DNA from: Flavobacteriales bacterium
Lineage (GTDB): Bacteria; Bacteroidota; Bacteroidia; Palsa-965
Direction: 5' to 3'
NCBI GenBank assembly: GCA_040377305.1
Contig: JBEIPA010000001.1
Coordinates: forward strand, 108,807 to 172,806
Length of the DNA stretch: 64,000 nt
The notes under the pieces are model-generated. The model was given only the letters and a program-made list of their open reading frames with translations. It had not been told where the DNA came from and made no database searches. Position numbers and translations under genes: made by a program. Positions 14,835-46,749 of the stretch are shown in pieces (positions within the stretch are counted from its first letter, which is position 1; each line of letters opens with the position of its first letter).

Positions 14835-14989
14835 TTTCCTCTCGTTTCTTTTAACTGTGCGATTGCAGGTACGCAGTGAGTGATCACGTGCTGGCTATGC
14901 GCATTCGTTTCGTTTGGATAGCAGGTCTATGAAGTACCTCTACGTCATCCTATCATCCTATTATCCCATCATTGCACCATCAACAAGCA

Positions 14990-17101
14990 TTACTCCAGTC
15001 CTGTTTCTTTCCAGATAAACTGACACTTCACGAGGTTATAGTAACCGAACTTATCATCCTTCTCCAGTCGTAATTCATGGGAGGAAATAAATTCAATCTT
15101 ATCGTACACGCACGGCAACAGTTGATTTCCTTTCGCATCAAGCAATCCCCAGCCTGTATCAGTTTTTACCTGCATGTATCCATCAATGCATTCTGATGCC
15201 TCCTCGTATCGCGGTGTAATAAATTCTTTTCCTTTCGCATCGATGTAACCAATGAGTCCGTCTTTACGCACGCGTGCCACGCCGTCTGAGAAGGACCAGG
15301 CATACTCGTATGTGTACGGAACTTTCAATTTCATTTTATCATCAACAAATCCCCACTTCTCTTTCTTTTTCGCCGGAAATAATCCATCGCGGAAAGCACC
15401 AAGATCCTCATACTCACGAGGAACAATAATTTTTCCCGTAGTGTCGATCATTCCGAATTTGTCTTTCAGCAAAACTTTCGCGCGACCATTAACGAACGGA
15501 CTTTCTCCCAACATCGTTCGGTTGTAGTCGTACTTCAATTCCACTGCGATCTTTCCGTTGCGACGAACGTAACCGCACATATTTCCTTGCACCACAAGTG
15601 CCATCCCTTCGCTGAACGGGCCGATGTAATTGTACTCGCATGGAATGAGAACTTGACCGGTGTATGAAATCAATCCGTACATACCATCTTTCTCTACACG
15701 CGCCGATCCCTGATCAAACGGTTCCGCCCATTCATACTGTGGCGCAATTACGAGTCTTCCTTCCCGATCAACATATCCGTACATGGATGAGTCTTTCACA
15801 TAAGCAAGTCCTTCCGAAAAATCACCGACCGCCTCATACTTACAGGACACGACCTCATTGCCCATCATATCAATAAATCCTTGCTTGTCGCCCCGAACAA
15901 CGCGCGCACGGGTTTGCCTGAATTCTCCGATTCCATCGTACACAGGCTTCACTACAAAGTTTCCGGCTTTGTCTGTGATTCCCGTTTTACCATTGGAAAC
16001 AACTTGTGCTAATCCGCGATGAAACTTTTCGCCTTCATCAAACTGAAAACCGATTGCAACACTTCCGTTCTTGTTGATGTATCCGCATTTGTCATCCATT
16101 CCGGCTGCAGCAACTCCTTCTGAAAATTGATCCACCCATTCATACTTGCATTCGATCAGAATTTTTCCGGTGCTATCTGCGAACCCCCATTTTCCGTTTT
16201 CTCGAACACGATAAAACTTAGTCATCGACAGTCTTAGATCTTCGCTGATCGTTTCGCGGAAGGGAAACTCAGGATACGTAATCCAGAATTGCGCAATAGT
16301 AGTCGAACTTCCATCGGCCGTGTAGAGTGCGTACAAACTTTTCCATGCATCCGGAACATTTCTGTTTTGTGGATACGTATTTATAAATGTGTGATACTCT
16401 TCCACAGAATAATTAGGCACCGACATTTTATACACCGCATCCTCTGCTGTTCCGTGATAAGGACTGTCCGGAAAATCTGCAATGAAGCTAACGTATGACT
16501 GGAGTGATGAGTCTGCAGTTTTTGTCTCAAACAAACGACGATCGTAAGCAACTTGTGCTGCGGGAATCTGTTCTGCTTCCGGATACAATGAAATGAATTC
16601 ACTGAATGCCTCGTACGAATTTGCTTTCTCTGCTGCTGCAAATGCCAATGTATTCCTGTTTTTCACCGCGAGTGAAATCATCGGTGAACCGCAGAATTCA
16701 TCAATATAAGTGTTGTATGCCGCAACGGTATTCTTTTGTTCCGCTTCGAAGTAGCCGAGTGTATCAATTCGTTTTTCCAGGCGTACAATTACCGAATCAT
16801 TCACACCCAATTTCTGCAATCGGATTTTCTCCTTTGCACTCGAAGTTGCATACGACCATCGCGAAGAAAGAACCTGTTGGTGTGCACGTGTCACATTGTA
16901 AAATGGATTCTTGTCATTCGCATAAATCGTCGCGAGTCCGAAATGCGCTCCGGCGGGATGTCGTTTTTCCGCTTTGATAAAAAGTTCCTGCGCTTTGAAG
17001 TAATCGTAAATGCGCAAAGCCCCAAATCCTTTCTCCAGTCGCTGTGCCGACAGGATAAAAGGAGACAAGAACAAGACAAGTATGAGCGCGCGCTTCAACA
17101 T
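14990..17101 (-). CDS. WG-repeat (KWG) containing protein
   Basis: 703 aa with about twelve repeats of the form GKWGFxDxxGKxVIxPxYE. Signal peptide present. Confidence 0.8.
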   Translation of the reverse strand: MLKRALILVLFLSPFILSAQRLEKGFGALRIYDYFKAQELFIKAEKRHPAGAHFGLATIYANDKNPFYNVTRAHQQVLSSRWSYATSSAKEKIRLQKLGVNDSVIVRLEKRIDTLGYFEAEQKNTVAAYNTYIDEFCGSPMISLAVKNRNTLAFAAAEKANSYEAFSEFISLYPEAEQIPAAQVAYDRRLFETKTADSSLQSYVSFIADFPDSPYHGTAEDAVYKMSVPNYSVEEYHTFINTYPQNRNVPDAWKSLYALYTADGSSTTIAQFWITYPEFPFRETISEDLRLSMTKFYRVRENGKWGFADSTGKILIECKYEWVDQFSEGVAAAGMDDKCGYINKNGSVAIGFQFDEGEKFHRGLAQVVSNGKTGITDKAGNFVVKPVYDGIGEFRQTRARVVRGDKQGFIDMMGNEVVSCKYEAVGDFSEGLAYVKDSSMYGYVDREGRLVIAPQYEWAEPFDQGSARVEKDGMYGLISYTGQVLIPCEYNYIGPFSEGMALVVQGNMCGYVRRNGKIAVELKYDYNRTMLGESPFVNGRAKVLLKDKFGMIDTTGKIIVPREYEDLGAFRDGLFPAKKKEKWGFVDDKMKLKVPYTYEYAWSFSDGVARVRKDGLIGYIDAKGKEFITPRYEEASECIDGYMQVKTDTGWGLLDAKGNQLLPCVYDKIEFISSHELRLEKDDKFGYYNLVKCQFIWKETGLE

Positions 17102-24006: not shown

Positions 24007-24133
24007 ATTCTCCAAAGATACGGAGAGATCGGAGTCGGGAGTTATTCCCAAGTGTAAACAGTCTTGACTACCTGGCGATCGAACACTTTTCCTGATACAT
24101 CCGGGTCTCTCATCTCCCGTCCCACCCTTATCT

Positions 24134-25624
24134 TTGAGCGTGCAGAAAATCATCCTTCGATCCGTCGCTATCCTTGCAATCCTCACAGGTGCAATTGCAT
24201 TACTCGTTTGGTATTGGACAATGAAGCGTGACATGCCTGCACAAGCTCGTGTGATTCCGGCTGATGCAATGGCTGTTCTTACATTCAACATTCGCGAAAT
24301 CGCTGCAGATCGTTCGGGAGATGAACATTTATTTCCCGACATAATGGATAAGGCGATGATCGGAAATGAGATTGAATCGTTCTCGCGCGCAATCGATGGC
24401 AACGGAGGACAAACGGGTGTTGCTACGATGTCGGACATTCTCATGTTTGTTTATCAAACGGGCAACGAAGGTTATTTCGGAGTGGCAGTTGAACTTGAAG
24501 ACAGCGCGATGTTTGGTAATCTGATGCGCATTCACTTTGCCAAAGAATACAACATCGTTCCATTATCGATGGGCGGAATTCCGTTGATGCAATTCGATAC
24601 AACTGCGGCCGTGTTCGGTTGGACAAACGATGTAGCGCTTTTGCTCTACCCGCTCGGAAATCATGGCATCCCGCAGGTCACCGCGCAGTGCACAAAGCTC
24701 CTCAAACAGCAAAAAGAAAATTCCGTTCTCGCGAATGAAAAATTCCAGGAGATGGAAAAGCAAACGTTTGCCTTAGGATTGTGGGTGCAAACAAAATCGC
24801 TGCTCACGTTCACGGACGGCGGTTCTTTAATCGAAGCAATTACGCATGACGTGGAAACGTATAATTACCTCGCGAATTTCGAAGACGGTGAGATTCTCAT
24901 TCGCTCCGAATGGCATCTTGCCGATGAGGCGAAACGTGATATGATCAGAGAATTCGAATTTCCGTGCGACACGTCTCTCATCACCTCATTTCTGCGGGGA
25001 CGTTTCGATGTGAAATCCGATTCACTTGCAGGAGGCTCATTCGCTGATGCGGCGTTCGATAAACTTCCGATTGCAGAAGAAGATTATCCTGAACTTTTTT
25101 CTTCGATGACCGGTGATTTTATTTCTGTTGGACACAGTAAGATTGCCGGCGACGAATTCGAAACACACTGTTTCCTGTTGTCTGATCCGGCCAAAGCAAA
25201 AGCATTCATCACTTCACGCATGCAACGCGATTCGATTCCGCTGACAACATCAGGTTGGAAATACAACGTTGCTCTTGTCCAGGAGTGGAGAATGATCATG
25301 GACAACAACATGCTCACGCTCACAAATCATCCGGGTGTTGACGGAAGACCACATGCTATGACTGCGAATCTTGCAGGCTATATGGCGTGGTTCAACTTTC
25401 AGAAAATGCTGGCAGAAGCCGACGGTGGTATCTATGCATTTATTCCGCTTATCAATACGGGTGCGCCATTGCTTTCAGAACATGTTACAACGTGTAGCAG
25501 CACATTACCGGTTCAGTTCGGCAATGTTCGTCACTCAGAAATTGTTTTCCGTTTCAGGAACAGAGAAGTGAACGGACTTGTGCAGACCGAGGAGTTGGTG
25601 AGGAAGATTTACTTCGGGAAATAG
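24134..25624 (+). CDS. hypothetical signal-anchored protein
   Basis: 496 aa. The N-terminal TM segment ILRSVAILAILTGAIALLVWYW is encoded only if a TTG (24134) or GTG (24140) start is used. No recognisable catalytic motif. Confidence 0.5.
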   Translation: MSVQKIILRSVAILAILTGAIALLVWYWTMKRDMPAQARVIPADAMAVLTFNIREIAADRSGDEHLFPDIMDKAMIGNEIESFSRAIDGNGGQTGVATMSDILMFVYQTGNEGYFGVAVELEDSAMFGNLMRIHFAKEYNIVPLSMGGIPLMQFDTTAAVFGWTNDVALLLYPLGNHGIPQVTAQCTKLLKQQKENSVLANEKFQEMEKQTFALGLWVQTKSLLTFTDGGSLIEAITHDVETYNYLANFEDGEILIRSEWHLADEAKRDMIREFEFPCDTSLITSFLRGRFDVKSDSLAGGSFADAAFDKLPIAEEDYPELFSSMTGDFISVGHSKIAGDEFETHCFLLSDPAKAKAFITSRMQRDSIPLTTSGWKYNVALVQEWRMIMDNNMLTLTNHPGVDGRPHAMTANLAGYMAWFNFQKMLAEADGGIYAFIPLINTGAPLLSEHVTTCSSTLPVQFGNVRHSEIVFRFRNREVNGLVQTEELVRKIYFGK

Positions 25625-35415: not shown

Positions 35416-35613
35416 GGTAGATTGTTTTTTCAGTTTGGAATTCATGTAGCGCGGGGCGGTATCATGAAAGTTGTTGTTAGGTATATCTGTTGCCAAATTT
35501 ACGCGGGGGCGTTTGGCAATCGGGGCAAAATTAGATGTTTGGGGTGGATTACAGGATATGTGGCGGTTATTTCAGGACATTTAACTGCATCGTTGCTCAC
35601 CCTGGACTAAAGT

Positions 35614-35720
35614 CCATGGTTATCACGGCTTTTGCTGGTTTATAGGGCATTTTGCGTTGGCGAAATTCCCGCCAACACAAAATGCCCTGCATCCACAAAG
35701 TAAGGACGTGATAACCGTGG
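35614..35720. repeat. nested inverted repeat (~107 bp structured element)
   Basis: Inner arms GGGCATTTTGCGTTGGCG (35645-35662) and CGCCAACACAAAATGCCC (35670-35687) pair at 17 of 18 positions. Outer arms CCATGGTTATCACGG (35614-35628) and CGTGATAACCGTGG (35707-35720). Confidence 0.5.
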
Positions 35721-35745
35721 GCTTCAGCCCGCGGTTCGACGAGAC

Positions 35746-37323
35746 CTACGGCAACTCCGCCATCAAAACGAACAGTTTCTCGAATTTATCTCTGATTTCG
35801 GAGAGTTCCCATTGCGTATTGTTCCCAATCATCGCAAATGCCAACCGCTTGCCGCTTTTGGTGTCTACATATCCTGAATAAGCCCGCACGCGAGACATGG
35901 TTCCGCTTTTTGCGCGAAGATTTCCTTCTGCAGCAGTGCTATCTGCAAGTTTTCTGATTGTACCCGATTCTCCCGCAACCGGAAGTGATCGATAGAACGA
36001 CTCGAAAATGATGGTGTCTTTTGCAAACGCACGTAACATGCTTACAAGTTGTTTAGTGGTGATGGAGTTGTTTCGCGACAAGCCACTTCCATCGACCATA
36101 TACAAACCTTGTATGTCGACGTTGTGTTTTCTCCAGAACTCATAAACACAAGCTGCGCCACCAAATGTGCTGCCGTATCCTTTTTGTTTGTGCGAGATTG
36201 CGCGCAGAATAGTTTCTGCATAAAAGTTTTGTGATATCTGATTCGTGTGATAAACGAGATCACGCAGTGTTGCCGACGAAGTTGAAGTGATTGTTTTTCT
36301 TCCACCTTCCGCTTCGAGTTTCAATCCGTTGAGACGAATCAAACGGATGGTCGTTGCGGAATCACCAACCTTTATTCCGCGCTCTGCGAGTTCGTTCTTC
36401 AACAGTTGCGCACACAACAAAGCCGGATCGGGAATAGAACCTCGCGCATCGAGGTGTCCGTTCACTTCTCCTTGCACAACGCGCTCGAATTGGTAAGGAC
36501 CACCGGTTACATACGCATAAGACTTCGCGACAGAATTGTTTACGCATTGATTGTACAATTTCATCCCCGGAATTTTCGGAGAGTAACTCATGCTCACATG
36601 TCCGCCGGAACCATTCAATGAAATACTGAATTGATTTTCGTGAATGGACAATCCGCTTGGACCTGCGCCGTAATCGCTTTGCACATCTTCCCAGCACCAG
36701 CCACCCGGAGTCATATCGCGTTCGAATGCCTCTGCATCTCCGATGATGCAACCCGAAATAGAGTCAACCCCCAAATTCTGAATGGCAGTTGCCCAGTTGT
36801 TCACCACTTTCTCTACGCTGCTGCCGTATGTTTCCGAACCAAGTGTCGGATCTCCGTTTCCGCGTATGTAAATATTTCCTTTGAGCGTGTTTCCGTCTTT
36901 CGATCCGTCGTGCTGCAATGAAGTAGTGAAACGATAACCCGGTCCAAGAATGGAAAGTGCGGTTCCGGTTGTCACAATTTTCATGACCGAGGCAGGAACT
37001 AATCCTGTTGTAGAATTCCATTCGTACATCGCCGTGTCTGCATCAACGGGTCCGAGGTAATAACTCCACGTTCCTCCACGAAGCTGTGCTGCGGCATTGA
37101 TTGAGTCTTCGATGAATGCGAGTAGTCTTCCCATTGCCGAAGTGTCTTTTTCAACGGACTCCTCTTCTTGCGTAGAGTCAGCGTTCTGAGTCACTTTATC
37201 CTTGAGCGGAACTTTTTCTCCTCCCGTCATAAAAACAAAAATTGTCGCGAGGATTGCCAGAGATAAAATGGCAATGGCACCTACTTGTTTAACGGTGAGG
37301 GTTTTGTTGAGGATATGCTTCAC
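35746..37323 (-). CDS. dacB: D-alanyl-D-alanine carboxypeptidase/endopeptidase (PBP4, peptidase S13)
   Basis: SVMK (SxxK), SQN and KSG motifs in S13 order. The N-terminal TM anchor requires the GTG at 37323; the alternative ATG is at 37401. Confidence 0.7.
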   Translation of the reverse strand: MKHILNKTLTVKQVGAIAILSLAILATIFVFMTGGEKVPLKDKVTQNADSTQEEESVEKDTSAMGRLLAFIEDSINAAAQLRGGTWSYYLGPVDADTAMYEWNSTTGLVPASVMKIVTTGTALSILGPGYRFTTSLQHDGSKDGNTLKGNIYIRGNGDPTLGSETYGSSVEKVVNNWATAIQNLGVDSISGCIIGDAEAFERDMTPGGWCWEDVQSDYGAGPSGLSIHENQFSISLNGSGGHVSMSYSPKIPGMKLYNQCVNNSVAKSYAYVTGGPYQFERVVQGEVNGHLDARGSIPDPALLCAQLLKNELAERGIKVGDSATTIRLIRLNGLKLEAEGGRKTITSTSSATLRDLVYHTNQISQNFYAETILRAISHKQKGYGSTFGGAACVYEFWRKHNVDIQGLYMVDGSGLSRNNSITTKQLVSMLRAFAKDTIIFESFYRSLPVAGESGTIRKLADSTAAEGNLRAKSGTMSRVRAYSGYVDTKSGKRLAFAMIGNNTQWELSEIRDKFEKLFVLMAELP

Positions 37324-37336
37324 GATGCAAAGATAG

Positions 37337-37468
37337 ACGGCAGGCGACAGACGACAGACGGGAGTACCGTAGATTTGCCAACGAAACCCGGTTAGAAACA
37401 TCGTTCTTTTACTCGGAAAACGTTGATTTTCACCCTTTACTCCCGTCTCCCGCCTGTCGTCTGGAGAC
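37337..37468. promoter_or_regulatory. imperfect inverted repeat pair carrying the 12-mer GGAGACGGGAGT in the divergent dacB / ECF-sigma intergenic region
   Basis: Left arm ...GACGACAGACGGGAGTACC. Right arm CTTTACTCCCGTCTCCCGCCTGTCGTCTGG. The same 12-mer occurs as an inverted pair at 46141-46281. Confidence 0.35.
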
Positions 37469-37525
37469 TTTTTCGTCCCTTTGTAAAATAAACACCCACC
37501 CCACCACGACCTTCCTACCGTAGTA

Positions 37526-38116
37526 ATGAAGGACATGGTACCCATAGCAACGACAATGGCCGCAGAGCAAAACAGGCTGCTTGAAGAAACAGTACAGCGC
37601 GAAAGACGCCGTTTGCTCGAGTTCATACGAAAAAGAATTCCGCAGGAGGAAGATCCGGAAGACGTGCTTCAGGATGTATTCACTGAATTAACGGAAGCTT
37701 TCAGAATGGAACGGGTCATCGACCGTGTGTCGGGCTGGGTATATCGTGTTGCCAGAAACAAAATCGCAGATCTTTTCAGGAGACGGAGAACAGAGTCGTT
37801 GGAAGCACGATACGAAAAAGAATTTGGCGATGGAGAAGAAGGCTTAGGCTTAAACGACTTGTTGCCTGACCCGTCGGCAGGTCCGGAAGCTGAATATGCA
37901 CGCCGTGTTATTATGAGTGAGTTGATGCTTGCACTTGATGAATTACCGGAAGAACAGCGTTGGGTTTTCTGGGAAAATGAAATCGAAGAACGTCCTTTCC
38001 GTGAGCTCGCGGAAGAGGCTGGAGTGTCGCTCAACACATTACTTTCAAGAAAACGATATGCTGTTTTGTTTCTACGAGAACGTTTGCGCGGTCTGTATGA
38101 AGAGCTCGGCAACTAA
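37526..38116 (+). CDS. ECF (sigma-70 group IV) RNA polymerase sigma factor
   Basis: Region 2 is DVLQDVFTELTEAF...WVYRVARNKIADLFRRR. Region 4 is RELAEEAGVSLNTLLSRKRYAVLFLRERL. Confidence 0.85.
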   Translation: MKDMVPIATTMAAEQNRLLEETVQRERRRLLEFIRKRIPQEEDPEDVLQDVFTELTEAFRMERVIDRVSGWVYRVARNKIADLFRRRRTESLEARYEKEFGDGEEGLGLNDLLPDPSAGPEAEYARRVIMSELMLALDELPEEQRWVFWENEIEERPFRELAEEAGVSLNTLLSRKRYAVLFLRERLRGLYEELGN

Positions 38117-38273
38117 TAGTAAAGAGTACAGAGAAAAGAGGCGAGAGAAAAGAATGGTGCGGATGCGAAAAAGAAAACAACAGCCTCTCGCCGCTTTACT
38201 CTTCACTCTTTACCCGACCGAAAACGAGGTCGACAAACTAAAAGAAGTATAAACGAACTAAAATATACAACAC

Positions 38274-38666
38274 ATGAAATGGTTTTTGAGATGTATAGCA
38301 GCCGTAGTGGGATTCGCTGCACTCGCATTCGCGCTCGCGTGGATAACGATGTTGCTCTGGAACTGGTTGGTTCCTGGACTGTTCGGCGGTCCTGAAATCA
38401 GGTACCTCGAAGCTGCAGGATTAATGATTCTCGGTAGACTGCTCGTGGGTGGATTCAAAAGTGGAGGTGGGCATTGCGGTCACGGTGGTAAATGGGGACA
38501 TGGCGGACACGGTTACTGGAAACGTCGCTGGGAAGACAAGATGGCGAACATGACTCCGGAAGAAAAGGAGAAGTTCAAAATGGGAATGAACAAGTGCGGT
38601 GGTTGGGGACGTTGGAATGATTGTGAAACTGAGACGCCGAAGGCGGAGACGAACAATACGCAATAG
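38274..38666 (+). CDS. small membrane protein with His/Gly/Cys-rich tail (putative metal-binding; possible ECF partner)
   Basis: Two N-terminal TM helices, then GGGHCGHGGKWGHGGHGYW...NKCGGWGRWNDCE. Confidence 0.5.
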   Translation: MKWFLRCIAAVVGFAALAFALAWITMLLWNWLVPGLFGGPEIRYLEAAGLMILGRLLVGGFKSGGGHCGHGGKWGHGGHGYWKRRWEDKMANMTPEEKEKFKMGMNKCGGWGRWNDCETETPKAETNNTQ

Positions 38667-38710
38667 TCAATACGCAATGCGCAGTCACTAATCTGAGACT
38701 GGAATTAAAA

Positions 38711-38750
38711 GAAAAAGGTTCGAGAGTCAAATCTTCGAACCTTTTTCTTT
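38711..38750. terminator. bidirectional rho-independent terminator
   Basis: AAAAAGGTTCGAG-n9-TTCGAACCTTTTT flanked by A-rich and T-rich runs, between convergent genes. Confidence 0.7.
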
Positions 38751-38761
38751 TTGCGCTTTGG

Positions 38762-40270
38762 CTATTGCGTATTGCTCATTGGATCGCGCTTGCGCGAAAG
38801 TGCAAACATCACAAAAGCCAACGTTATCAACGATACAAAAAACGTAAGCATGCTGCTGTTTGCTTCCGATGTTTGTTCAGGTTCAAAATCCCCGAACGGA
38901 ATGATGCTTCCCTGTTTCGAGCTCTGGTGTTTTTTGTCGAGATACTGATCGAACTCTTTCGGATAATCGTAATGCGTGGTGATATCGCGACCAGTGAGCC
39001 ACTGATACGTGTATAATTCATTCCAACGACGCTTACCCAGTTCCACCAGATACTCTTGTCCTTTTTCGCAGGTGTAATCCGTACTGTACGGCGGGTTCGT
39101 GAGAATATATCGTCCCTGGAATCGCACCTTATTTGCAGTTTCCTGAAATAACAAATCCTGTGGAAAATGTTCGCGATCATACGTGAGGTGCAGACGTGTG
39201 AAGTACACGAAGCCTTCGTACGTTTTAGCTTGCGTGTGATAGTCCGTGCTTTTTAGTTCAAGCCAATCTACACCCGCATCTTTCAGATCAGTTACAACAG
39301 GTGGATCACCAACGCACGGATCACAGAATTGATTTTGCGTTGGAGAAACATCCCAACCGTATTCGAGGAAAACGGTATTCTTTCCCTCGCGACTCCATGC
39401 TTTGTTGTAGAGATCACGATAAAATTCACCGAACTCGTTGCGAACAAACAGCGGCACTTTAAAGTCGGTTGGAATAAGCGAAGTGCGATAGTTTGTTGTT
39501 TCGATGCGTCCAACTTTGGAGTACATGTACACAACAAGATCCTGTACGCCGTTTGCGTTTGCCATTCCCAGGCGAATCGGCAACATGAATTTTGGTGAGG
39601 TGTATGTAATCTGTAGTGGCTTCAATGGCACAGCTCCAGCCGCGGTGTAATTTTCGAGATTCACTTTCGCCACGAAAAACTTCATGTTCGTTTTGATGTA
39701 CGGATCGAGAACTTCTTTTGCACCGACCGGCATTTTATAACCGTTGTCAATGAGCCATTCTTCTAATCCACCAGATTCAAGTGCAGAAAGAATAAGAATA
39801 TCATATTCACCAACGGTGTATTTCGCTTCCACGGTTACGCCGTAGGATTTTTCCTCCATCGGTGCCGCATTTCCATCGCTGTAACCATAAGCTGCAGATC
39901 TGGTTTTCTTAGCCCCGTAGTGTGGTTTGTATTTCGGAGGAGTGTAACATGGATTCTGATCGTAGTACTCCACCAGACGTGGTGAAGAATACAAATCAAG
40001 TTTATCGAACAACGCGCGCTCTGCAACTTTGATATCGCCTTCCTGCAATACCACCGGAACCGGAACGACCATTGCAAAATCCTTCACGTCGCCTTCAAAA
40101 TCACTCGACATGGTTACGGTTTGCTTATCACCATTCTTCGCAATGATAACCTGCGATGTTTTGTTGAATAGTTTGATGTCTGCTTTTGCAACATAAAATC
40201 CGCAGAAGCTGTAGCCGATGTTGCTTGTGAACACTATAGCTGCGAGAGTGAGGATGAGCGTCTTTTTCAT
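38762..40270 (-). CDS. tandem paralogue 1 of 4: secreted protein with C-terminal TM anchor, unknown function (tentatively DUF2330-like)
   Basis: 502 aa. Signal peptide, SFCGFYVAKAD, VVPVPVVL, KFMLPIRLGMANANGVQDL and QFCDPCVGDPP conserved with the other three copies. The C-terminal segment FFVSLITLAFVMFALSRKR is a TM helix with a basic tail. Confidence 0.85.
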   Translation of the reverse strand: MKKTLILTLAAIVFTSNIGYSFCGFYVAKADIKLFNKTSQVIIAKNGDKQTVTMSSDFEGDVKDFAMVVPVPVVLQEGDIKVAERALFDKLDLYSSPRLVEYYDQNPCYTPPKYKPHYGAKKTRSAAYGYSDGNAAPMEEKSYGVTVEAKYTVGEYDILILSALESGGLEEWLIDNGYKMPVGAKEVLDPYIKTNMKFFVAKVNLENYTAAGAVPLKPLQITYTSPKFMLPIRLGMANANGVQDLVVYMYSKVGRIETTNYRTSLIPTDFKVPLFVRNEFGEFYRDLYNKAWSREGKNTVFLEYGWDVSPTQNQFCDPCVGDPPVVTDLKDAGVDWLELKSTDYHTQAKTYEGFVYFTRLHLTYDREHFPQDLLFQETANKVRFQGRYILTNPPYSTDYTCEKGQEYLVELGKRRWNELYTYQWLTGRDITTHYDYPKEFDQYLDKKHQSSKQGSIIPFGDFEPEQTSEANSSMLTFFVSLITLAFVMFALSRKRDPMSNTQ

Positions 40271-40372
40271 TCGGCGGTCGGGTTTATGATATGATGATAG
40301 AATGATCGGATGATAGGATAGGTCGAGTCAAATATTCACTACACTCTATCATTCAATCATCCCACAATCTTA
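40271..40372 (-). promoter_or_regulatory. conserved inter-paralogue element: upstream arm GATGATTGAATGATAG plus about four tandem ATCATNNN octamers ending ~10 nt before the start codon
   Basis: Gene-sense reading: ...GGGATGATTGAATGATAGAG...CCTATCCTATCATCCGATCATTCTATCATCATATCATAAACC-ATG. Confidence 0.5.
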
Positions 40373-41875
40373 TCACTGATTCGGTACTGTTTCTTTTAGC
40401 TTGCGCTTACGCGAAAGAGCAAACATCACTCCTGCAAATGCAAGTACTGAAGTGAAAAATGTAATCATATTGCTTTCCGATTTCGTGGCATGCTCGGGTG
40501 TGAAGTTCTCCAAATCAACCAAGGCTCCCTGTTTCTTCGGAGCGCCGCCGGTTAGAAACTGATCGTATTCTTTCGGATAATCTGCATGCGATGTGATATC
40601 GCGACCCGTGAGCCACTGATAGGTGTACAATTCATTCCAGCGACGTTTCCCGAGATCCTTGATGTAAGTCTGTCCTTCTGCACACGACAAATCTCCGCTG
40701 GCCGGATGCGTGATGATGTAGCGGCCCTGAAACTTTTCTTTGTTCGCCGTTTCCTGAAACAACAAATCCTGCGGAAAGTGCGCACGATCATATTTCAAAT
40801 GCATGCGCGTGAAGAAAACATTACCTGCATACGTTCTTGCTTGTGTGTGGTAGTCCTGAGTTGCCAGTGTAAGCCAATCTACTCCTGCTTCTTTCAGATC
40901 AGTTACCATTGGAGGATCGCCCACACACGGATCACAAAACTGGGTTTGATTCGGAGAAACTTCCCACGCGTATTCGAGGAACACGGTGTTCTTTCCTTCG
41001 CGTGTCCAGGCTTTGTCGTAGAGATCCCGATAAAATTCGCCGAATTCATTCTGCACAAACAGTGGTACTTTGAAATCGGTTGGAATGAGTGAAGTGCGAT
41101 AATTGGTTGTTTCGATTCTTCCGATTTTCGAATACATGTAAATCACGAGATCCTGTACACCATTTGCGTTTGCCATCCCCAGTCGGATTGGCAACATAAA
41201 TTTTGGCGATGTGTAAGTAATTTGAAGCGGATCGAGATCAACCGAACCTTTATTGGCGAACTTCTCGAGATTCACTTTACACACAAAAAACTTCATGTTC
41301 GTTTTGATGTACGGATCCAAAACTTCTTTTGCACCAACAGGCATTTTGTAACCGTTGGCGTTGAGCCACGTTTCAAGTCCTCCCGATTCTTTCGCCGACA
41401 AAATCAAAATGTCATACGTTCCGATCTGGTACTGCGCTTCAACCGTAACTCCGAGCGTATCTGCAGCATAACCAAAGTTCATCATCGGTGCTGCATCGAA
41501 AGAAACTTCACTCAGAAGTACTCCTTCATTGTAATACTCAGGTTCCACGTAACAGGGAGTCTGATCGTAATAAGAAACCAATCGTGGAGATGAATAATCT
41601 TCCAGTTTTCCGAAGATGCTTTGATTCACCGTTCGGATATCTTTCTCCTCCAGCACAACCGGAACTGGAACGACCATGGCAAAGTCTTTCACCTCTCCTT
41701 CAAAATCACTCGACATCGTAACGGTTTGCTTGTCGCCATTCTTTGCTATAATTACCTGTGAAGTCTTGTTGAACAATTTCACATCAGCTTTCGCCACGTA
41801 AAATCCGCAGAAACTGTAGCCTATGTTGCTGGTGAACACTATGGCAGCTAGAGTAAGTATGAGTACTTTCTTCAT
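40373..41875 (-). CDS. tandem paralogue 2 of 4 (same family)
   Basis: 500 aa. Near-identical scaffold to 41975-43477 except for the cassette segments. Confidence 0.85.
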   Translation of the reverse strand: MKKVLILTLAAIVFTSNIGYSFCGFYVAKADVKLFNKTSQVIIAKNGDKQTVTMSSDFEGEVKDFAMVVPVPVVLEEKDIRTVNQSIFGKLEDYSSPRLVSYYDQTPCYVEPEYYNEGVLLSEVSFDAAPMMNFGYAADTLGVTVEAQYQIGTYDILILSAKESGGLETWLNANGYKMPVGAKEVLDPYIKTNMKFFVCKVNLEKFANKGSVDLDPLQITYTSPKFMLPIRLGMANANGVQDLVIYMYSKIGRIETTNYRTSLIPTDFKVPLFVQNEFGEFYRDLYDKAWTREGKNTVFLEYAWEVSPNQTQFCDPCVGDPPMVTDLKEAGVDWLTLATQDYHTQARTYAGNVFFTRMHLKYDRAHFPQDLLFQETANKEKFQGRYIITHPASGDLSCAEGQTYIKDLGKRRWNELYTYQWLTGRDITSHADYPKEYDQFLTGGAPKKQGALVDLENFTPEHATKSESNMITFFTSVLAFAGVMFALSRKRKLKETVPNQ

Positions 41876-41974
41876 GACGTAAGTTTATGATAGGATGATA
41901 GAATGATCGGATGATTGGATAGGTCGGGTGATCGTACTAACTCCATCCTATCATTCAATCATCTGATAATCCCA
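41876..41974 (-). promoter_or_regulatory. conserved inter-paralogue element (copy 2)
   Basis: ...CCTATCCAATCATCCGATCATTCTATCATCCTATCATAAACTTACGTC-ATG, with the upstream inverted partner GATGATTGAATGATAGG. Confidence 0.5.
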
Positions 41975-43477
41975 TCATGAATTCGGCACTGTTTGTTCCT
42001 TTGATTTCCGCTTACGCGATAAAGCAAACATTACTCCGGCAAACGCAAGAACAGAAGTAAAGAAACTAATCATGTTGCTTTCCGATTTCGTTGCATGTTC
42101 CGGTATGAATTCCTCAGGTGTCAAGAATGAACCTTGTTTCTTCGCCGCACCACCCGTTAAATACCGATCGAACTCCTTCGGATAATCGTAATGCGCAGTA
42201 ATATCGCGACCAGTTAGCCACTGATAGGTATAGAGTTCATTCCAACGGCGCTTTCCAAGATCCTTGATATACGTTTGCCCTTCTGCACAAGAAAGATCTC
42301 CGCTTGCCGGATAGGTGATAATGTAACGACCCTGAAACTTTTCCTTGTTCGCTGTTTCCTGGAATAACAAATCCTGCGGGAAGTGTGCGCGATCATACGT
42401 GAGGTGCAAACGCGTGAAGAACACATTACCTGCGTATGTTCTCGCTTGCGTGTGGTAATCCTGAGTCGCCAGTGTAAGCCAATCTACTCCGGCTTCTTTC
42501 AGATCAGTTACCATCGGTGGATCACCAACGCACGGATCGCAGAACTGTGTTTGATTCGGAGAAACTTCCCATGCGTATTCGAGAAACACGGTGTTCTTTC
42601 CTTCCCGTCCCCAAGCTTTATTGTAGAGATCGCGATAGAACACACCGAACTCATCTTTCGCAAACAGAGGCACTTTGAAATCGGTTGGGATTAACGAGGT
42701 GCGATAATTAGTCGTCTCGATGCGACCGATCTTTGAATACATGTAGATGATCAAATCCTGAACCCCATTGGCATTCGCCATTCCAAGTCGGATCGGCAAC
42801 ATGAATTTCGGCGACGTGTAAGTAATTTGAAGTGGATCGAGATCAACAGAACCTTTGTTCGCAAATTTTTCAAGATTCACTTTGCAAACAAAGAACTTCA
42901 TATTGGTCTTGATGTACGGATCGAGAACTTCCTTAGCACCAACCGGCATTTTGTATCCGTTGTCGTTGAGCCACGTTTCGAGTCCGCCCGATTCCTTTGC
43001 TGACAAGATGAGAATATCGTACGTGCCGATTTGGTATTGAGCTTCAATAGTTACACCTAAACTTTGAGTTGTAGTCACATTCGCGACACTCATTCTCATC
43101 ATTTCCGGAGCTGCAGCAACCATATCGTAATCGTAATCGTCCCGCTCAACGTAACAAGGTGTTTGATCGTAATACGATACCAATCGTGGAGCGGAATAAT
43201 CTTCCAGTTTTCCGAAGATGCTTTGATTCACTGTGCGAATATCTTTCTCTTCAAGAACTACAGGCACGGGAACAACCATCGCGAAATCTTTTACTTCGCC
43301 TTCGAAGTCGCTCGACATGGTTACTGTTTGCTTATCGCCATTCTTCGCGATAATCACCTGAGACGTTTTGTTGAAGAGCTTTACATCCGATTTCGCAACG
43401 TAGAAACCACAGAAGCTGTAGCCCATATTGCTGGTGAATAGGATAGCGGCGAGGGTGACGATAAGTATTTTTTTCAT
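41975..43477 (-). CDS. tandem paralogue 3 of 4 (same family)
   Basis: 500 aa. Confidence 0.85.
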   Translation of the reverse strand: MKKILIVTLAAILFTSNMGYSFCGFYVAKSDVKLFNKTSQVIIAKNGDKQTVTMSSDFEGEVKDFAMVVPVPVVLEEKDIRTVNQSIFGKLEDYSAPRLVSYYDQTPCYVERDDYDYDMVAAAPEMMRMSVANVTTTQSLGVTIEAQYQIGTYDILILSAKESGGLETWLNDNGYKMPVGAKEVLDPYIKTNMKFFVCKVNLEKFANKGSVDLDPLQITYTSPKFMLPIRLGMANANGVQDLIIYMYSKIGRIETTNYRTSLIPTDFKVPLFAKDEFGVFYRDLYNKAWGREGKNTVFLEYAWEVSPNQTQFCDPCVGDPPMVTDLKEAGVDWLTLATQDYHTQARTYAGNVFFTRLHLTYDRAHFPQDLLFQETANKEKFQGRYIITYPASGDLSCAEGQTYIKDLGKRRWNELYTYQWLTGRDITAHYDYPKEFDRYLTGGAAKKQGSFLTPEEFIPEHATKSESNMISFFTSVLAFAGVMFALSRKRKSKEQTVPNS

Positions 43478-43579
43478 GACACTGTAAGTTGATGATGGAA
43501 TGATAGAATTATTGGATGATAGGATGGAACGAAGAACAACATAAACTACATCCTATCATTTAATCATCTGAGCATCCTA
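43478..43579 (-). promoter_or_regulatory. conserved inter-paralogue element (copy 3)
   Basis: Same architecture (…ATCCTATCATTTAATCATC… / …GATGATGGAATGATAGAATTATTGGATGATAGGATGG…). Confidence 0.5.
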
Positions 43580-45088
43580 TCATGTTTGTGAGGTAGTTTG
43601 AGACTTTGCCTTCCGTTTTCGCGATAACGCAAACATCACTCCTGCAAATGCAAGTACAGAAGTGAAGAACGTGATCATATTGCCTTCAGACTTTGTTGCG
43701 TGTTCCGGCACGAAAGACTCGATTGACATGAACGAACCTTGTTTGGTTTTTCCACCGGTTGATTTGATGTGCTGATCATATTCCTTCGGATAGTCGTAGT
43801 GCGCAGTAATGTCGCGACCGGTAAGCCACTGATACGTGTAAAGCTCGTTCCAACGGCGCTTACCAAGCTCCTTCACATAAGTCTGTCCCTTTTCGCACGA
43901 GAAATCTCCGCTTGCCGGATGAGTAATGATGTAACGACCCTGAAATTTTTCTTTGTTCGCTGTTTCCTGGAACAACAAATCCTGCGGGAAGTGCGCGCGA
44001 TCATACGTAAGATGCATACGTGTAAAGAACACATTGCCTGCGTACGTTCTCGCTTGTGTATGATAATCCTGGCTCGCAAGTTCAAGCCAATCAACGCCAG
44101 CTTCTTTCAGGTCAGTTACCATTGGAGGATCGCCAACGCACGGATCACAAAACTGCGTTTGATTCGGAGAAACTTCCCACGCATACTCGAGGAATACGGT
44201 ATTCTTTCCTTCGCGGCCCCAAGCTTTGTTGTACAGGTCGCGGTAGAATTCGCCAAACTCATTCTGAACAAACAACGGAACTTTAAAATCGGTTGGAATC
44301 AAAGACGTGCGATAGTTTGTTGTTTCGATACGACCGATCTTCGAATACATGTAAATGATCAAATCCTGAACTCCATTCGCATTTGCCATTCCGAGTCGAA
44401 TCGGCAACATGAACTTCGGTGATGCATACGTAATCTGAAGTGGATCGAGATCAACGGAACCTTTGTTTGCGAATTTTTCCAGATTCACTTTACACACGAA
44501 GAATTTCATGTTCGTTTTGATGTACGGATCGAGCACTTCTTTAGCGCCCACCGGCATTTTGTATCCGTTGTCGTTGAGCCACATCTCTAATCCGCCCGAT
44601 TCTTTCGCTGATAAAATCAGGATGTCATAAGTTCCAATTTGGTATTGCGCTTCTACAGTTACCTGGTAGTCGTCAGCCAACTCCTTGCTTACGCTTTTCA
44701 TTTCCATTCTGTCGATAGACGCTCCCGCAGCCATAGGATAGTTGTAATACTCCGGTTCTACGTAACAGGGGTTCTCATCGTAATAAGAAACGAGTCGCGG
44801 GGCTGAGTAGTCATCAAGTTTGGCGAAGATGCTCGCTTGCACAGTTCGTATGTCTTTCTCTTCGAGAACTACCGGAACAGGAACGACCATTGCAAAATCC
44901 TTCACGTCGCCCTCGAAGTCGCTCGACATGGTAACGGTTTGCTTCTCGCCATTCTTCGCGATAATAACCTGCGATGATTTATTGAAAAGTTTCACGTCTG
45001 CTTTTGCAACATAAAATCCGCAGAAGCTATAGCCCATGTTGCTGGTGAACACAATGGCTGCGAGAGTGAGTATCAGTACTTTTTTCAT
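43580..45088 (-). CDS. tandem paralogue 4 of 4 (same family)
   Basis: 502 aa. Confidence 0.85.
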   Translation of the reverse strand: MKKVLILTLAAIVFTSNMGYSFCGFYVAKADVKLFNKSSQVIIAKNGEKQTVTMSSDFEGDVKDFAMVVPVPVVLEEKDIRTVQASIFAKLDDYSAPRLVSYYDENPCYVEPEYYNYPMAAGASIDRMEMKSVSKELADDYQVTVEAQYQIGTYDILILSAKESGGLEMWLNDNGYKMPVGAKEVLDPYIKTNMKFFVCKVNLEKFANKGSVDLDPLQITYASPKFMLPIRLGMANANGVQDLIIYMYSKIGRIETTNYRTSLIPTDFKVPLFVQNEFGEFYRDLYNKAWGREGKNTVFLEYAWEVSPNQTQFCDPCVGDPPMVTDLKEAGVDWLELASQDYHTQARTYAGNVFFTRMHLTYDRAHFPQDLLFQETANKEKFQGRYIITHPASGDFSCEKGQTYVKELGKRRWNELYTYQWLTGRDITAHYDYPKEYDQHIKSTGGKTKQGSFMSIESFVPEHATKSEGNMITFFTSVLAFAGVMFALSRKRKAKSQTTSQT

Positions 45089-45209
45089 GACCCTTTAGTT
45101 TTATGATCGAATGATTCAATGATTTGATGATCGGATTGGATACGGTACAACAGAAACTCCATCCTATCAATCTATAATCATATCATGCTAATTATTCGTG
45201 GTATTGAGT
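45089..45209 (-). promoter_or_regulatory. conserved element upstream of first paralogue (copy 4)
   Basis: Gene-sense: ...ATCCAATCCGATCATCAAATCATTGAATCATTCGATCATAAAACTAAAGGGTC-ATG. Confidence 0.5.
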
Positions 45210-46073
45210 TTATTTAGACCAGGAGAATTTATCTCCTTTGAAAATTTTATCGAGCACAGGAACGAGTGGTGACAAGAAGAACAATGCCCACACTGGAGGC
45301 GCAGAATACACCCACCATTTCGTTGCCATGTAGTATGCCAGAATGCCAACTCCAACAGCCCATATCAATCGTGCTTTTTGTGAAGCAGGAGTCTGAACCG
45401 GATCAGTGATCATGAAGAAGGTGAAGAGCAGCAACGAACCGTTCGTTAATTGATGCGTAAAGAAATCCATCGGCCAACCGAGGTAAAGAATGTTGCGCGC
45501 AAACATTAACCCGAGGAACGTAAGCAAGAATGCAAACGCTGTATCGAGACGTTTAACGCGCAACAGCACAACCAAACCTGTAAGGCCTACAACAAACAAC
45601 AACAAACCGTCACTTCCCCACTGTCCAGGAGAAATCCATGAGTCACCTGTAAGCAGGACTGTTACACAGATTCCAAAGTTTGTTGGATTGAAAATATGTT
45701 TGCCATTATATTTTAAAAAGAACTTGCTTCCGATGGAGAGCACTGCACACAACACGAATGTCCACACACTGTTTGCCTGCATCATCAAACAGATACTCAT
45801 TGCACTTACGAGTGCACTCTTGAGTCCTGTCCAATCTTTCGTCTTGAACTGTATCCAAAGTGCCTGCACTGCGAGACAAGAAAGAATCACGATGTTCACC
45901 CGCATGATTGGGATCGTCCAATCCAACACGAAAATCCCGTACAACAGGAAAGACAGTTGGAACAGAATCTGATAATGGCGGGCATCACTTCGAAACCATT
46001 CGAGAACGTTAGTTACGGGCTTAATCGCCGTTTTTAGGGCGTTTTGGGCGACGGGTAGAGATTGAGTTTCCAT
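45210..46073 (-). CDS. polytopic membrane protein, possibly NqrB/RnfD-like
   Basis: The ATG at 46073 (METQSLPVAQ) is preferred over the longer track ORF. About eight TM helices. The FFMITDPVQTP motif is reminiscent of the Rnf/Nqr D/B subunit signature, but the protein is shorter than canonical members. Confidence 0.35.
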   Translation of the reverse strand: METQSLPVAQNALKTAIKPVTNVLEWFRSDARHYQILFQLSFLLYGIFVLDWTIPIMRVNIVILSCLAVQALWIQFKTKDWTGLKSALVSAMSICLMMQANSVWTFVLCAVLSIGSKFFLKYNGKHIFNPTNFGICVTVLLTGDSWISPGQWGSDGLLLFVVGLTGLVVLLRVKRLDTAFAFLLTFLGLMFARNILYLGWPMDFFTHQLTNGSLLLFTFFMITDPVQTPASQKARLIWAVGVGILAYYMATKWWVYSAPPVWALFFLSPLVPVLDKIFKGDKFSWSK

Positions 46074-46140
46074 TGGATTAGTATTAATTCCGCAAGTAGG
46101 ATGCGGGGCTTTAGCTGATTCCATAAAAGGTACAAAAAAA

Positions 46141-46281
46141 GATGGGAGTCGGGAGATGGGAGACGGGAGTGAAAAGCTGCAGGGCCAACGCGATTGCATT
46201 GGAATCATTGATTTCCAAATTCATGGCGAATAATTAGATGCCGGATATGCGTCTTCCTACTCCCGTCTCCGATCTCCTAAC
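46141..46281. repeat. second inverted pair of the GGAGACGGGAGT 12-mer, in the 5' region of the membrane-protein gene
   Basis: Left arm GATGGGAGTCGGGAGATGGGAGACGGGAGTG. Right arm CTACTCCCGTCTCCGATCTCC. About 85 bp apart. Confidence 0.4.
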
Positions 46282-46749
46282 TCAATACTCGTCTGCTTTC
46301 AACACTTTCTTCACCCGTGAGCCTTCTTCATTGAAGCACTGCACATAATACACGCCGACCGGAAACCCGCGGAAGTCAACCTGGAAAAGCTGATGCGTGT
46401 TTACGAAAAATCCATAGCTGTAGTATTCTTTTCCGAAGCGATCAAACACTTTTACGTAAACCACTCCCGGAACCTTTACCCAGATGTCCATTGTAATTAA
46501 ATCGACTGGGGGATTCGGTGTGTACCAGAAATCTATCGGATCGCAAATGGTGTTGGAGTTCCAGTATGTTAATCCTGCATTGTTCGAAAAGCAATCATTC
46601 TGATAGGTGAATCCATCGCAACCACAAACCGGTTCGTAGCGCGGATCACAATAACCCCCGTATACAACTTGTGTAGAGTCGTAACACCCTTGCGCTTTCG
46701 CAAAATGACATACGACAATCAACAATACCGCAAAAGTCCAACGGATCAT
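46282..46749 (-). CDS. Kazal-type serine-protease-inhibitor domain protein with T9SS C-terminal sorting domain
   Basis: Kazal core CDPRYEPVCGCDGFTYQNDCFSNNAGL...C. The C-terminal Por-tail-like segment is DIWVKVPGVVYVKVFD...GVYYVQC. Signal peptide present. Confidence 0.6.
   Translation of the reverse strand: MIRWTFAVLLIVVCHFAKAQGCYDSTQVVYGGYCDPRYEPVCGCDGFTYQNDCFSNNAGLTYWNSNTICDPIDFWYTPNPPVDLITMDIWVKVPGVVYVKVFDRFGKEYYSYGFFVNTHQLFQVDFRGFPVGVYYVQCFNEEGSRVKKVLKADEY

Follow-up and report, generated by a model that had tools for sequence, protein, structure and literature searches.

The DUF2330 gene array and its spacers

The stretch of DNA analysed here, referred to as the window, comprises 64,000 nucleotides (64 kb) of a Flavobacteriales bacterium (contig JBEIPA010000001.1, positions 108,807 to 172,806 of assembly GCA_040377305.1), and coordinates count from its first letter unless a related contig is named. 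Its minus strand carries four tandem paralogous genes (43580-45088, 41975-43477, 40373-41875 and 38762-40270), each encoding about 500 amino acids (aa). All four were matched by the Pfam family DUF2330 (E = 1e-67 to 1e-70), on which a literature search found no publication. An RnfD-like gene (45210-46208) and a gene for a small Kazal/Por_Secre_tail protein (46282-46749) lie upstream of the array, and a strong bidirectional terminator (38707-38751) lies downstream. The subject of this analysis is the repeat element that occupies the spacer in front of each paralogue, i.e., 40271-40372 (spacer 1), 41876-41974 (spacer 2), 43478-43579 (spacer 3) and 45089-45209 (spacer 4).

An earlier inspection without database searches (the sequence-only reading) had claimed that these four spacers share one architecture, in which octamer repeats end 8-12 nt before the ATG and an inverted arm lies upstream. 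Reading and aligning the spacers bore this out. In gene sense, the order is stop codon, (ATGATNNN)x3-4, a loop of 19-21 nt, (ATCATNNN)x4-5, 8-12 nt and ATG, and the final start-proximal unit is ATCATAAA or ATCATCAA. The distance from the last full 8-nt unit to the ATG is 12, 8, 11 and 11 nt in spacers 1 to 4, as had been proposed. The inverted arm is present too; it is not just GATGATTGAATGATAG but a degenerate (ATGATNNN)x3-4 array that reaches the upstream gene and usually contains its stop codon. The TGA of the upstream gene falls within the first stop-proximal unit in spacers 1-3 and in most orthologous copies. In spacer 4, which runs from the RnfD-like gene to the first paralogue, the stop-proximal arm begins about 22 nt past the stop. 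The features of the four spacers and of a solitary further copy are as follows:

40343-40376, minus strand: spacer 1, stop-proximal arm, in gene sense GTGATAAG ATTGTGGG ATGATTGA ATGATAGA GT; holds the TGA (40373-40375) of gene 40373-41875
40323-40342, minus strand: spacer 1, loop, poorly conserved
40282-40322, minus strand: spacer 1, start-proximal arm, in gene sense CCTATCCT ATCATCCG ATCATTCT ATCATCAT ATCATAAA C; followed by a short leader and the ATG of 38762-40270
41943-41978, minus strand: spacer 2, stop-proximal ATGATNNN arm; TGA of 41975-43477 within the first unit
41883-41923, minus strand: spacer 2, start-proximal ATCATNNN arm; four perfect units and CTATCCA
43549-43583, minus strand: spacer 3, stop-proximal ATGATNNN arm; TGA of 43580-45088 within the first unit
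43488-43527, minus strand: spacer 3, start-proximal ATCATNNN arm
45159-45186, minus strand: spacer 4, degenerate ATGATNNN arm; begins about 22 nt after the stop of 45210-46208
45099-45139, minus strand: spacer 4, start-proximal ATCATNNN arm; four perfect units
14943-14980, minus strand: solitary copy, ATGATNNN arm in the minus-strand reading; vestigial partner at about 14912-14925

The repeats are far more frequent than expected by chance. With up to two mismatches, the three-unit pattern ATCATNNNATCATNNNATCAT had 19 matches in the window versus 0.52 ± 0.75 expected, and none of 100 shuffles reached 19. The exact two-unit pattern had 13 matches versus 0.34 expected. All pattern matches were confined to the four spacers or to 14944-14980. 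Tandem Repeats Finder (TRF) returned period-8 arrays at 40286-40319, 41887-41920, 43492-43526 and 14945-14972, with 4.2-4.4 copies and 77-84% matches; the 8-bp period noticed by the sequence-only reading was thus confirmed.

The window holds five copies of the element, four of them in the one array. The fifth corresponds to a related string noted earlier at 14941-14975. It is real, yet it consists of one intact arm with a vestigial partner and begins 9 nt past the stop of the minus-strand WG-repeat gene 14990-17101. Since it lies between convergent genes, encoding an M23 peptidase and the WG-repeat protein, it precedes no gene. Within the window, the unit therefore precedes DUF2330 paralogues only.

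Perfect ATGATNNN units can also be read as chained three-codon mini-open reading frames (mini-ORFs; ATG ATN NNA TGA) with ATGA stop/start overlaps. A relay of such frames was considered, in which an upstream ORF of 22-27 codons starts near the loop and overlaps the downstream start by ATGA. It can be drawn in spacers 2, 3 and 4 and in one copy from the related contig L202 (L202_a, L202 847-969). Since it has no counterpart in spacer 1 or in two copies from contig L001 (L001_a and L001_b), it was treated as a probable by-product of composition.

Conservation and replacement in related arrays

Eleven copies from five genomes were aligned, and mean pairwise identity was determined by region. Identity was 0.76 in the stop-proximal arm, 0.79 in the start-proximal arm, 0.45 in the loop and 0.55 in the leader; the full ranges obtained were 0.76-0.82 for the arms (0.79-0.82 for the start-proximal one), 0.45-0.53 for the loop and 0.48-0.55 for the leader. 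Four-fold degenerate sites compared between paralogues were only 0.38-0.49 identical, i.e., near saturation, and the DUF2330 paralogues are therefore old. Three related metagenomic contigs retain the element; compared with the window, their four-fold sites in the adjoining gene were 0.40-0.50 identical, and their orthologous spacers upstream of the first paralogue were 0.70-0.84 identical. With arms at 0.76-0.82 versus four-fold sites at 0.38-0.50 and loops at 0.45-0.53, the element is conserved beyond neutrality, and the claim that each paralogue has its own conserved leader was upheld. Most likely, the copies were already present in the ancestral four-gene array and were retained by selection on the arms.

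Conservation is not uniform within the unit. The cores ATGAT and ATCAT are conserved in 10-11 of the 11 copies, and the triplets between them in 4-8. The number of units (about four), the final ATCATAAA unit and the distance to the ATG are constant throughout the aligned set. The start-proximal arm is the better conserved of the two, with four near-perfect units in most copies. Together with the leader, it holds 2-6 G in about 50 nt and no AUG.

The gene cluster 35746-46749 is kept in the close relatives L001, L002, L201, L203, L205 and L206. Its conserved order is the Por_Secre_tail protein gene, the RnfD-like gene, three or four DUF2330 paralogues, a gene for a protein of about 130 aa, an extracytoplasmic function (ECF) sigma factor gene and an S13 peptidase gene. 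The genes of the ~130-aa protein and the ECF sigma factor run convergent to the DUF2330 array; the S13 D-Ala-D-Ala carboxypeptidase gene follows.

The element does not follow its neighbours as faithfully. Seven distinct close orthologous arrays with conserved gene order were compared (71-89% protein identity to the window paralogues). The element was present in four of them, L001 (two good and two decayed copies), L202 (3/3), L203 (1/3) and L205 (1/3), and missing from L002, L201 and L206, though gene order is kept there. In 80 more distant loci (44-57% identity), it was missing upstream of every DUF2330 gene. The four paralogues of L206 are positional orthologues of those in the window (0.88, 0.89, 0.87 and 0.87 identity). 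All three inter-paralogue spacers of L206, as well as those of L201, carry a different palindrome of the form ..CTCTGCGGTAAAAAG...TTTTTACCGCGAAG.. instead. A palindrome of the CAACTAC/GTTGGTAG type occupies some spacers of L203 and L205. Filled and empty orthologous sites exist. No target-site duplication or sharp ends, of the kind that a miniature inverted-repeat transposable element (MITE) would show, were recognisable at these sites, and the loops of the copies have diverged (0.45-0.53).

The palindrome in L201 and L206 (..CCTCCGTGAGATCCTCCTTTTCTCTGCGGTAAAAAG..TTTTTACCGCGAAGCTCACAGAGG..; L201 7856-8000 and 9483-9605; L206 5657-5783, 7287-7408 and 8912-9027) has its pyrimidine-rich arm first. 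Each of these two genomes has one palindrome type per array, despite saturated synonymous sites of the paralogues.

Signals for transcription were sought around the array. The Bacteroidetes -7 box (TAnnTTTG) was not found on the gene strand between 38 and 47 kb, and none of the sigma-70-type sites in the region was convincing (10 found versus 15.2 expected). The four spacers contained no intrinsic terminator; unlike terminators, they have loops of 19-21 nt and A+T-rich arms and lack a T-run. They therefore appear to be intercistronic and free of promoter or terminator signals. Among the eight neighbouring genes, Pfam revealed no DNA-binding regulator besides the ECF sigma factor. A resemblance to Fur or DnaA boxes was dismissed by eye: about 20 nt separate the ATGAT from the ATCAT blocks, which do not abut, and the repeat has a period of 8 instead of 6. 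An inversion switch was ruled out because the loops are only 19-21 nt long.

A wider class of repeat-armed palindromes

Two inverted arms made of degenerate 7-8 nt tandem units are not peculiar to the DUF2330 spacers; the same architecture recurs with other units in unrelated intergenic regions nearby. The following sister elements were located:

46146-46283, minus strand: GGGAGNN/NNCTCCC heptamers; 36-nt arms, 78% complementary; 66-nt loop
38651-38777, no strand assigned: CAATACG-type heptamer arms enclosing the bidirectional terminator 38707-38751
38119-38213, plus strand: AGTAAAG/AGAG-type arms that directly follow the ECF sigma gene 37526-38116 with its TAA TAG stop
37341-37463, no strand assigned: AGACGAC/GGGAG-type arms; the S13 peptidase and ECF sigma genes diverge from this region
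about 24020-24135, no strand assigned: GGGAG type, bracketed precisely by divergent TATCTTTG boxes at 24013-24020 (minus strand) and 24129-24136 (plus strand)

Arms of this class begin within a few nt of stop codons. In the element at 46146-46283, one arm abuts the stop of 46282-46749; beyond the other come a T-run and a TACCTTTT box, and then the RnfD-like gene. Between genomes, this spacer has conserved arms and an unalignable loop of 66 to about 270 nt. L203 has GGTAG/CTACC in both arms versus GGGAG/CTCCC in three other genomes, a double change at three unit-equivalent pairs when the arms were cut out by hand and joined by an artificial linker. This change reflects either concerted compensatory evolution or joint replacement of both arms. 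The plus-strand arm at 46146-46171 also reads GGGAGTCGGGAGATGGGAGACGGGAG, a canonical G3-N4-G3-N4-G3-N4-G3 quadruplex motif, with its C-rich complement in the other arm (46248-46283).

At 38651-38777, the identical 12 nt AATACGCAATAG (Asn-Thr-Gln-stop) end both convergent genes within the arms, at 38655-38666 (plus strand) and 38762-38773 (minus strand). The two genes, that of the 130-aa protein and the last DUF2330 paralogue, are unrelated, and the shared ending suggests copying of the arms into both coding ends. Divergent -7 boxes bracket the element at about 24020-24135, and the promoters therefore belong to the symmetry.

A strict repeat detector (at least 80% identity over three units) reported 9 of 88 intergenic regions. 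It was too strict for degenerate arms, and a scan for inverted repeats was used instead. In the window and five related contigs, inverted repeats of 20 nt with 16 or more complementary positions were present in 25 of 78 intergenic regions, and the best of 10 shuffles reached 16 in just two of those 25. About 14 of the 25 had a long loop and repeat-like arms, with the purine-rich arm first in nearly all. A literature search found no description of repeat-armed palindromes in Bacteroidetes. The element offers a way into this class of Bacteroidia palindromes, which is apparently undescribed.

Four consecutive ATCATNNN units were also searched for in species-representative genomes, where at least 118 stretches were found; about 60% of the 80 titles listed were Bacteroidota, judged from their names. 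Among the matches listed, most were plain intergenic simple-repeat arrays. An inverted ATGAT-type array lay within 160 nt upstream in 7 of 103 and downstream in 2 of 103. An ORF start followed the ATCAT orientation in 25 of 100 arrays versus 14 for ATGAT, and an ORF end preceded the ATGAT orientation in 43 of 100 versus 29 for ATCAT. The orientation bias elsewhere is therefore modest and has the same direction as in the window.

Further small palindromes (GGGCTTCAGCCC / GGGCTAAAGCCC / GGCTGAAGCC) were seen in the window (35599-35735), in L001 (5422-5790) and in L203 (14543-14861). They occur in several intergenic regions and within the loops of larger palindromes and look like another dispersed repeat family.

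A putative link between termination and initiation, and its alternatives

Anatomy, repeat statistics, conservation, distribution and replaceability of the element were all observed directly, and they make it likely that the element belongs to a generic palindrome class and is not a specific operator. We tentatively favour, as something close to an even call, the reading that it is an interchangeable palindrome of this class which, in the DUF2330 spacers, probably serves as an RNA stem-loop joining termination to initiation. The narrower claim that the element acts as an RNA stem-loop in coupling or stability is somewhat more doubtful and is best regarded as possible.

In this scheme, each spacer would be one imperfect palindrome, with the ATGATNNN array by the upstream stop and the ATCATNNN array by the downstream start. 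It would belong to a class with simple-repeat arms and several unit families that fills many intergenic regions in this Bacteroidia lineage, and whose members replace each other at orthologous sites. The array would be transcribed as an operon, and on the mRNA, if it folds in vivo in this way, the arms would form stacked 5-bp AUGAU/AUCAU helices. Through these helices, the region of the upstream stop codon would be tied to a stretch poor in G and devoid of AUG, from about -50 to -12 relative to the next start. On terminating, a ribosome would melt the outer helices and make the next cistron's initiation region accessible, which would amount to translational coupling. A further possible role of the stem is in mRNA protection or processing, as proposed for repetitive extragenic palindromic (REP) elements. 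These steps, from the operon transcript to coupling, we infer.

Such a device may suit initiation in Bacteroidia. In Flavobacterium johnsoniae, initiation proceeds without Shine-Dalgarno pairing, mRNA structure tunes it, and positions -21 to -1 are depleted of AUG (PMC6847099). The orientation of the element, with the AUG-free and G-poor ATCAT array towards the start and the AUG- and stop-rich ATGAT array towards the stop, may be explained by this mode of initiation without AUG near the start.

Folding of the spacers supported the long stem-loop claimed by the sequence-only reading in part. The sense-strand z-scores relative to shuffles were -3.1, -3.2, -1.65 and +0.2 for spacers 1 to 4, with similar values for the antisense strand. 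Spacers 1 and 2 thus fold beyond shuffles, and spacer 3 is marginal. RNAalifold retained just the invariant inner 9-bp helix, AUGAU.GGAU with AUCC.AUCAU. In partition function calculations, the positions from 12 nt before to 15 nt after the stop were forced to be unpaired, as they might be under a terminating ribosome. The mean unpaired probability of positions -30 to -1 then rose from 0.33-0.46 to 0.54-0.75 in the five tested inter-paralogue spacers that have an arm abutting the stop, which makes the proposed coupling plausible. An Rfam search of the spacers returned no family; no match was below E = 0.7, and the matches were spurious miRNA models.

Several results weigh against the proposed RNA role. 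Spacer 4 folds no better than shuffles (z of +0.2), and the constraint on the stop region had no effect where the RnfD-like gene precedes the spacer; there, the arm begins about 22 nt past the stop, too far for coupling. RNAalifold detected no covarying pairs in the ATGAT/ATCAT family. Across the full in-register stem, 75.0% of cells pair versus 75.3 ± 0.9 in column shuffles, and the variable triplets are mostly mismatched. There was no sense-strand bias: 23 G-U cells stood against 32 A-C cells, so neither strand is favoured. The arms pair because both are arrays of the near-palindromic core AT(G/C)AT. Since covariation was absent, pairing was at shuffle level and no strand bias was seen, the long conserved hairpin was ruled out as a demonstrated feature; the hairpin is only weakly supported and not demonstrable, and selection for pairing was not seen in this family. 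A conserved core with a variable spacer is, moreover, also the pattern of a protein-binding array. Nor can every member of the class work as an RNA hairpin: some lie around a terminator between convergent genes, and that at about 24020-24135 is, judged from its bracketing promoter boxes, probably not transcribed. An RNA role can therefore not cover the whole class. The suggestion of a hairpin that controls translation by occluding the ribosome-binding site is to be kept as possible: geometry and folding are compatible with it, whereas covariation and strand bias are lacking and Bacteroidia do not rely on a Shine-Dalgarno site (PMC6847099).

Translational coupling through intercistronic mRNA structure is known from the rpmI-rplT and atp operons of E. 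coli. There, a stem sequesters the downstream initiation region, and ribosomes finishing the upstream cistron open the stem. The predicted stem of the element resembles these cases in that the stop lies within the 5' arm and the 3' arm would end about 12-17 nt before the ATG. Unlike in those operons, the stem has no Shine-Dalgarno sequence to hide; it is modular, mismatched and without covariation, and one of the four spacers does not fit. Structured cis-regulatory RNA families differ as well, in that they would be expected to give an Rfam match or covariation supporting the fold, and neither was found.

Closer parallels exist to REP elements and bacterial interspersed mosaic elements (BIMEs). 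Both these and the present class are intergenic imperfect palindromes, often located just after stops and inside operons; here, the arms abut or contain stops and no promoter or terminator signals were found. Both have several families per genome and inverted unit pairs with variable linkers, and both are gained, lost and replaced at orthologous sites. REP elements and BIMEs are usually credited with mRNA stabilisation or with effects on the translation of adjacent genes. A REP, as characterised in PMC3733652, is a single palindromic unit of 20-40 nt with a conserved GTAG or CGTC head. In contrast, the arms described here are degenerate 7-8 nt tandem arrays without such a head, and the lineage is Bacteroidia. 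REP elements and BIMEs also have many dispersed copies per genome and a cognate RAYT transposase; for the present element, five copies are known from the 64 kb, and no RAYT-type transposase is linked to it, though no search was aimed at one.

The arrays also invite comparison with simple repeats. The survey of long simple sequence repeats by Mrazek et al. 2007, in the summary given in PMC4679880, concerns tandem repeats of this general kind. Such repeats have units of 1-11 nt and exceed chance in length, and the present octamer arrays agree with this (19 matches versus 0.52 expected). TAACTGA heptamers, for which a role in translational control was proposed, abut start codons in Beggiatoaceae, Cyanobacteria and five Bacteroidetes (MacGregor 2015, PMC4679880). 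Like those, the element has tandem units of 7-8 nt in fixed orientation, the last of which ends 8-12 nt before the ATG in the four spacers, and, as with simple repeats in general, its arrays are enriched in Bacteroidota and similar lineages. Unlike them, it has a different unit that is impure and stable in number, is paired with an inverted array at the upstream stop and is conserved between genomes, and its unit does not stand upstream of many unrelated genes within the window.

Among the alternatives, a self-maintaining or selfish DNA palindrome without host function deserves the most attention, though it is somewhat unlikely. Slippage would create and homogenise the short units, template switching or arm-to-arm conversion would keep the arms complementary, and arms would extend until coding sequence stops them. 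Families would spread or convert between sites, and AUG avoidance and similar effects would shape orientation only. This would account for the occurrence of the architecture in every context (co-directional, convergent, divergent and between promoters) and for arms that run into coding ends, as with AATACGCAATAG at 38655-38666 and 38762-38773. It would also fit presence, absence and replacement at orthologous sites, including the parallel replacement in all inter-paralogue spacers of L201 and L206, and the same substitution in several units and both arms of L203. The lack of covariation and of strand bias in the ATCAT family agrees with it, ATCATNNN arrays are common elsewhere (at least 118 stretches), and polymerase slippage is the origin to which heptamer simple repeats have been attributed (Mrazek 2007, in the summary of PMC4679880). 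However, homogenisation within an element cannot explain arms that are conserved between genomes far above loops and synonymous sites, nor does it predict that unit number, the final ATCATAAA unit and ATG distance are constant in all 11 copies aligned. Efficient slippage would require purer units than these, and the target-site duplications or near-identical dispersed copies that recent mobility would leave were not seen. Another proposal, quite improbable in our view, is that the start-proximal (AUCAUNNN)n tract functions alone as an unstructured, G-poor and AUG-free leader which loads a 30S subunit through S1, Rho through YC dinucleotides, or a protein of KH or cold-shock type; the arm complementary to it would be incidental or a modulator. 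The tract is indeed the better conserved arm (0.79-0.82, mostly with four near-perfect units), contains 2-6 G per 50 nt or so and keeps a fixed distance to the ATG; among the matches listed, the ATCAT orientation precedes ORF starts more often (25 versus 14 of 100), and S1, Csp or CsrA were proposed as binders of the TAACTGA arrays that abut start codons (PMC4679880). Yet the solitary copy at 14943-14980 keeps the stop-proximal orientation with no start codon nearby, the stop-proximal arm is conserved too (0.76), and the bias elsewhere is modest.

The element also resembles ribbon-helix-helix operators, such as the 8-bp tandem met-boxes of MetJ, the direct and inverted heptads of the omega repressor and the 8-bp-phased boxes of ParG, in having phased 7-8 bp units that share a conserved core and occur in both orientations. 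A cooperative DNA-binding regulator could thus occupy the arms in both orientations and control each paralogue, and the sequence-only reading had suggested a shared regulator site with a regulon. An invariant 5-bp core with a variable 3-bp spacer in both arms, the conservation of both arms independently of pairing, the nearly palindromic AT(C/G)AT and the conserved neighbouring ECF sigma gene would agree with this. The suggestion was nevertheless not supported, and such an operator is improbable. No promoter-type box overlaps the arrays, no cognate regulator gene was found among the eight neighbours, and the sole other copy in the window precedes no gene. The motif is not co-inherited with its would-be targets: relatives without it keep the neighbouring genes, and it is missing from three of the seven distinct close arrays and from 80 of 80 distant DUF2330 loci. 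In positional orthologues, unrelated palindromes stand in its place, and the same architecture is built from other units in unrelated intergenic regions, so that each unit family would require its own protein. On this evidence, a dedicated operator or regulon for the DUF2330 genes is not supported. Phase-variable repeats or recombination hotspots, the latter also raised by the sequence-only reading, would switch expression or change the copy number of the paralogues. Different relatives do have three or four paralogues, the sole pointer to a hotspot, and short tandem repeats near start codons drive switching in some pathogens, according to the account in PMC4679880. Unlike phase-variable repeats, however, the units are degenerate (a 5-nt core and three variable positions), and their number stays at about four throughout the 11 copies. 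The spacers (identity about 0.75-0.8) do not exceed the coding sequences in nucleotide identity (0.69-0.79), so they are probably not preferred crossover substrates. This explanation is therefore very improbable.

A broader version of the proposed termination-initiation link was also considered. This Bacteroidia lineage, and probably other Bacteroidota, would carry undescribed modular palindromes in at least a fifth of intergenic regions, which start at stop codons, show concerted unit evolution in both arms and are mutually replaceable. In operons, they would act as a general device for ribosome handover or for the stability of mRNA segments. As a generalisation, this is unlikely. Should the class prove functional, Bacteroidia would have their own equivalent of REP elements and BIMEs, built on a different principle, i.e., simple-repeat arms evolving in concert, and it could bear on initiation at internal cistrons and on their balance where ribosomes ignore Shine-Dalgarno sequences. 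The practical message is a negative one: the element should not be treated as a regulon-defining operator, and motif scans are liable to mistake such arrays for regulatory sites. If the class is a mutational or selfish by-product, it still matters for annotation, since ORF calls are extended into ATG-rich arms, an artefact that these elements cause. Gene calls extended into an ATG-rich arm or spacer were seen at L202 2507-4060, L206 5607-7286 and L207 540-2219 (517 or 559 aa versus about 500).

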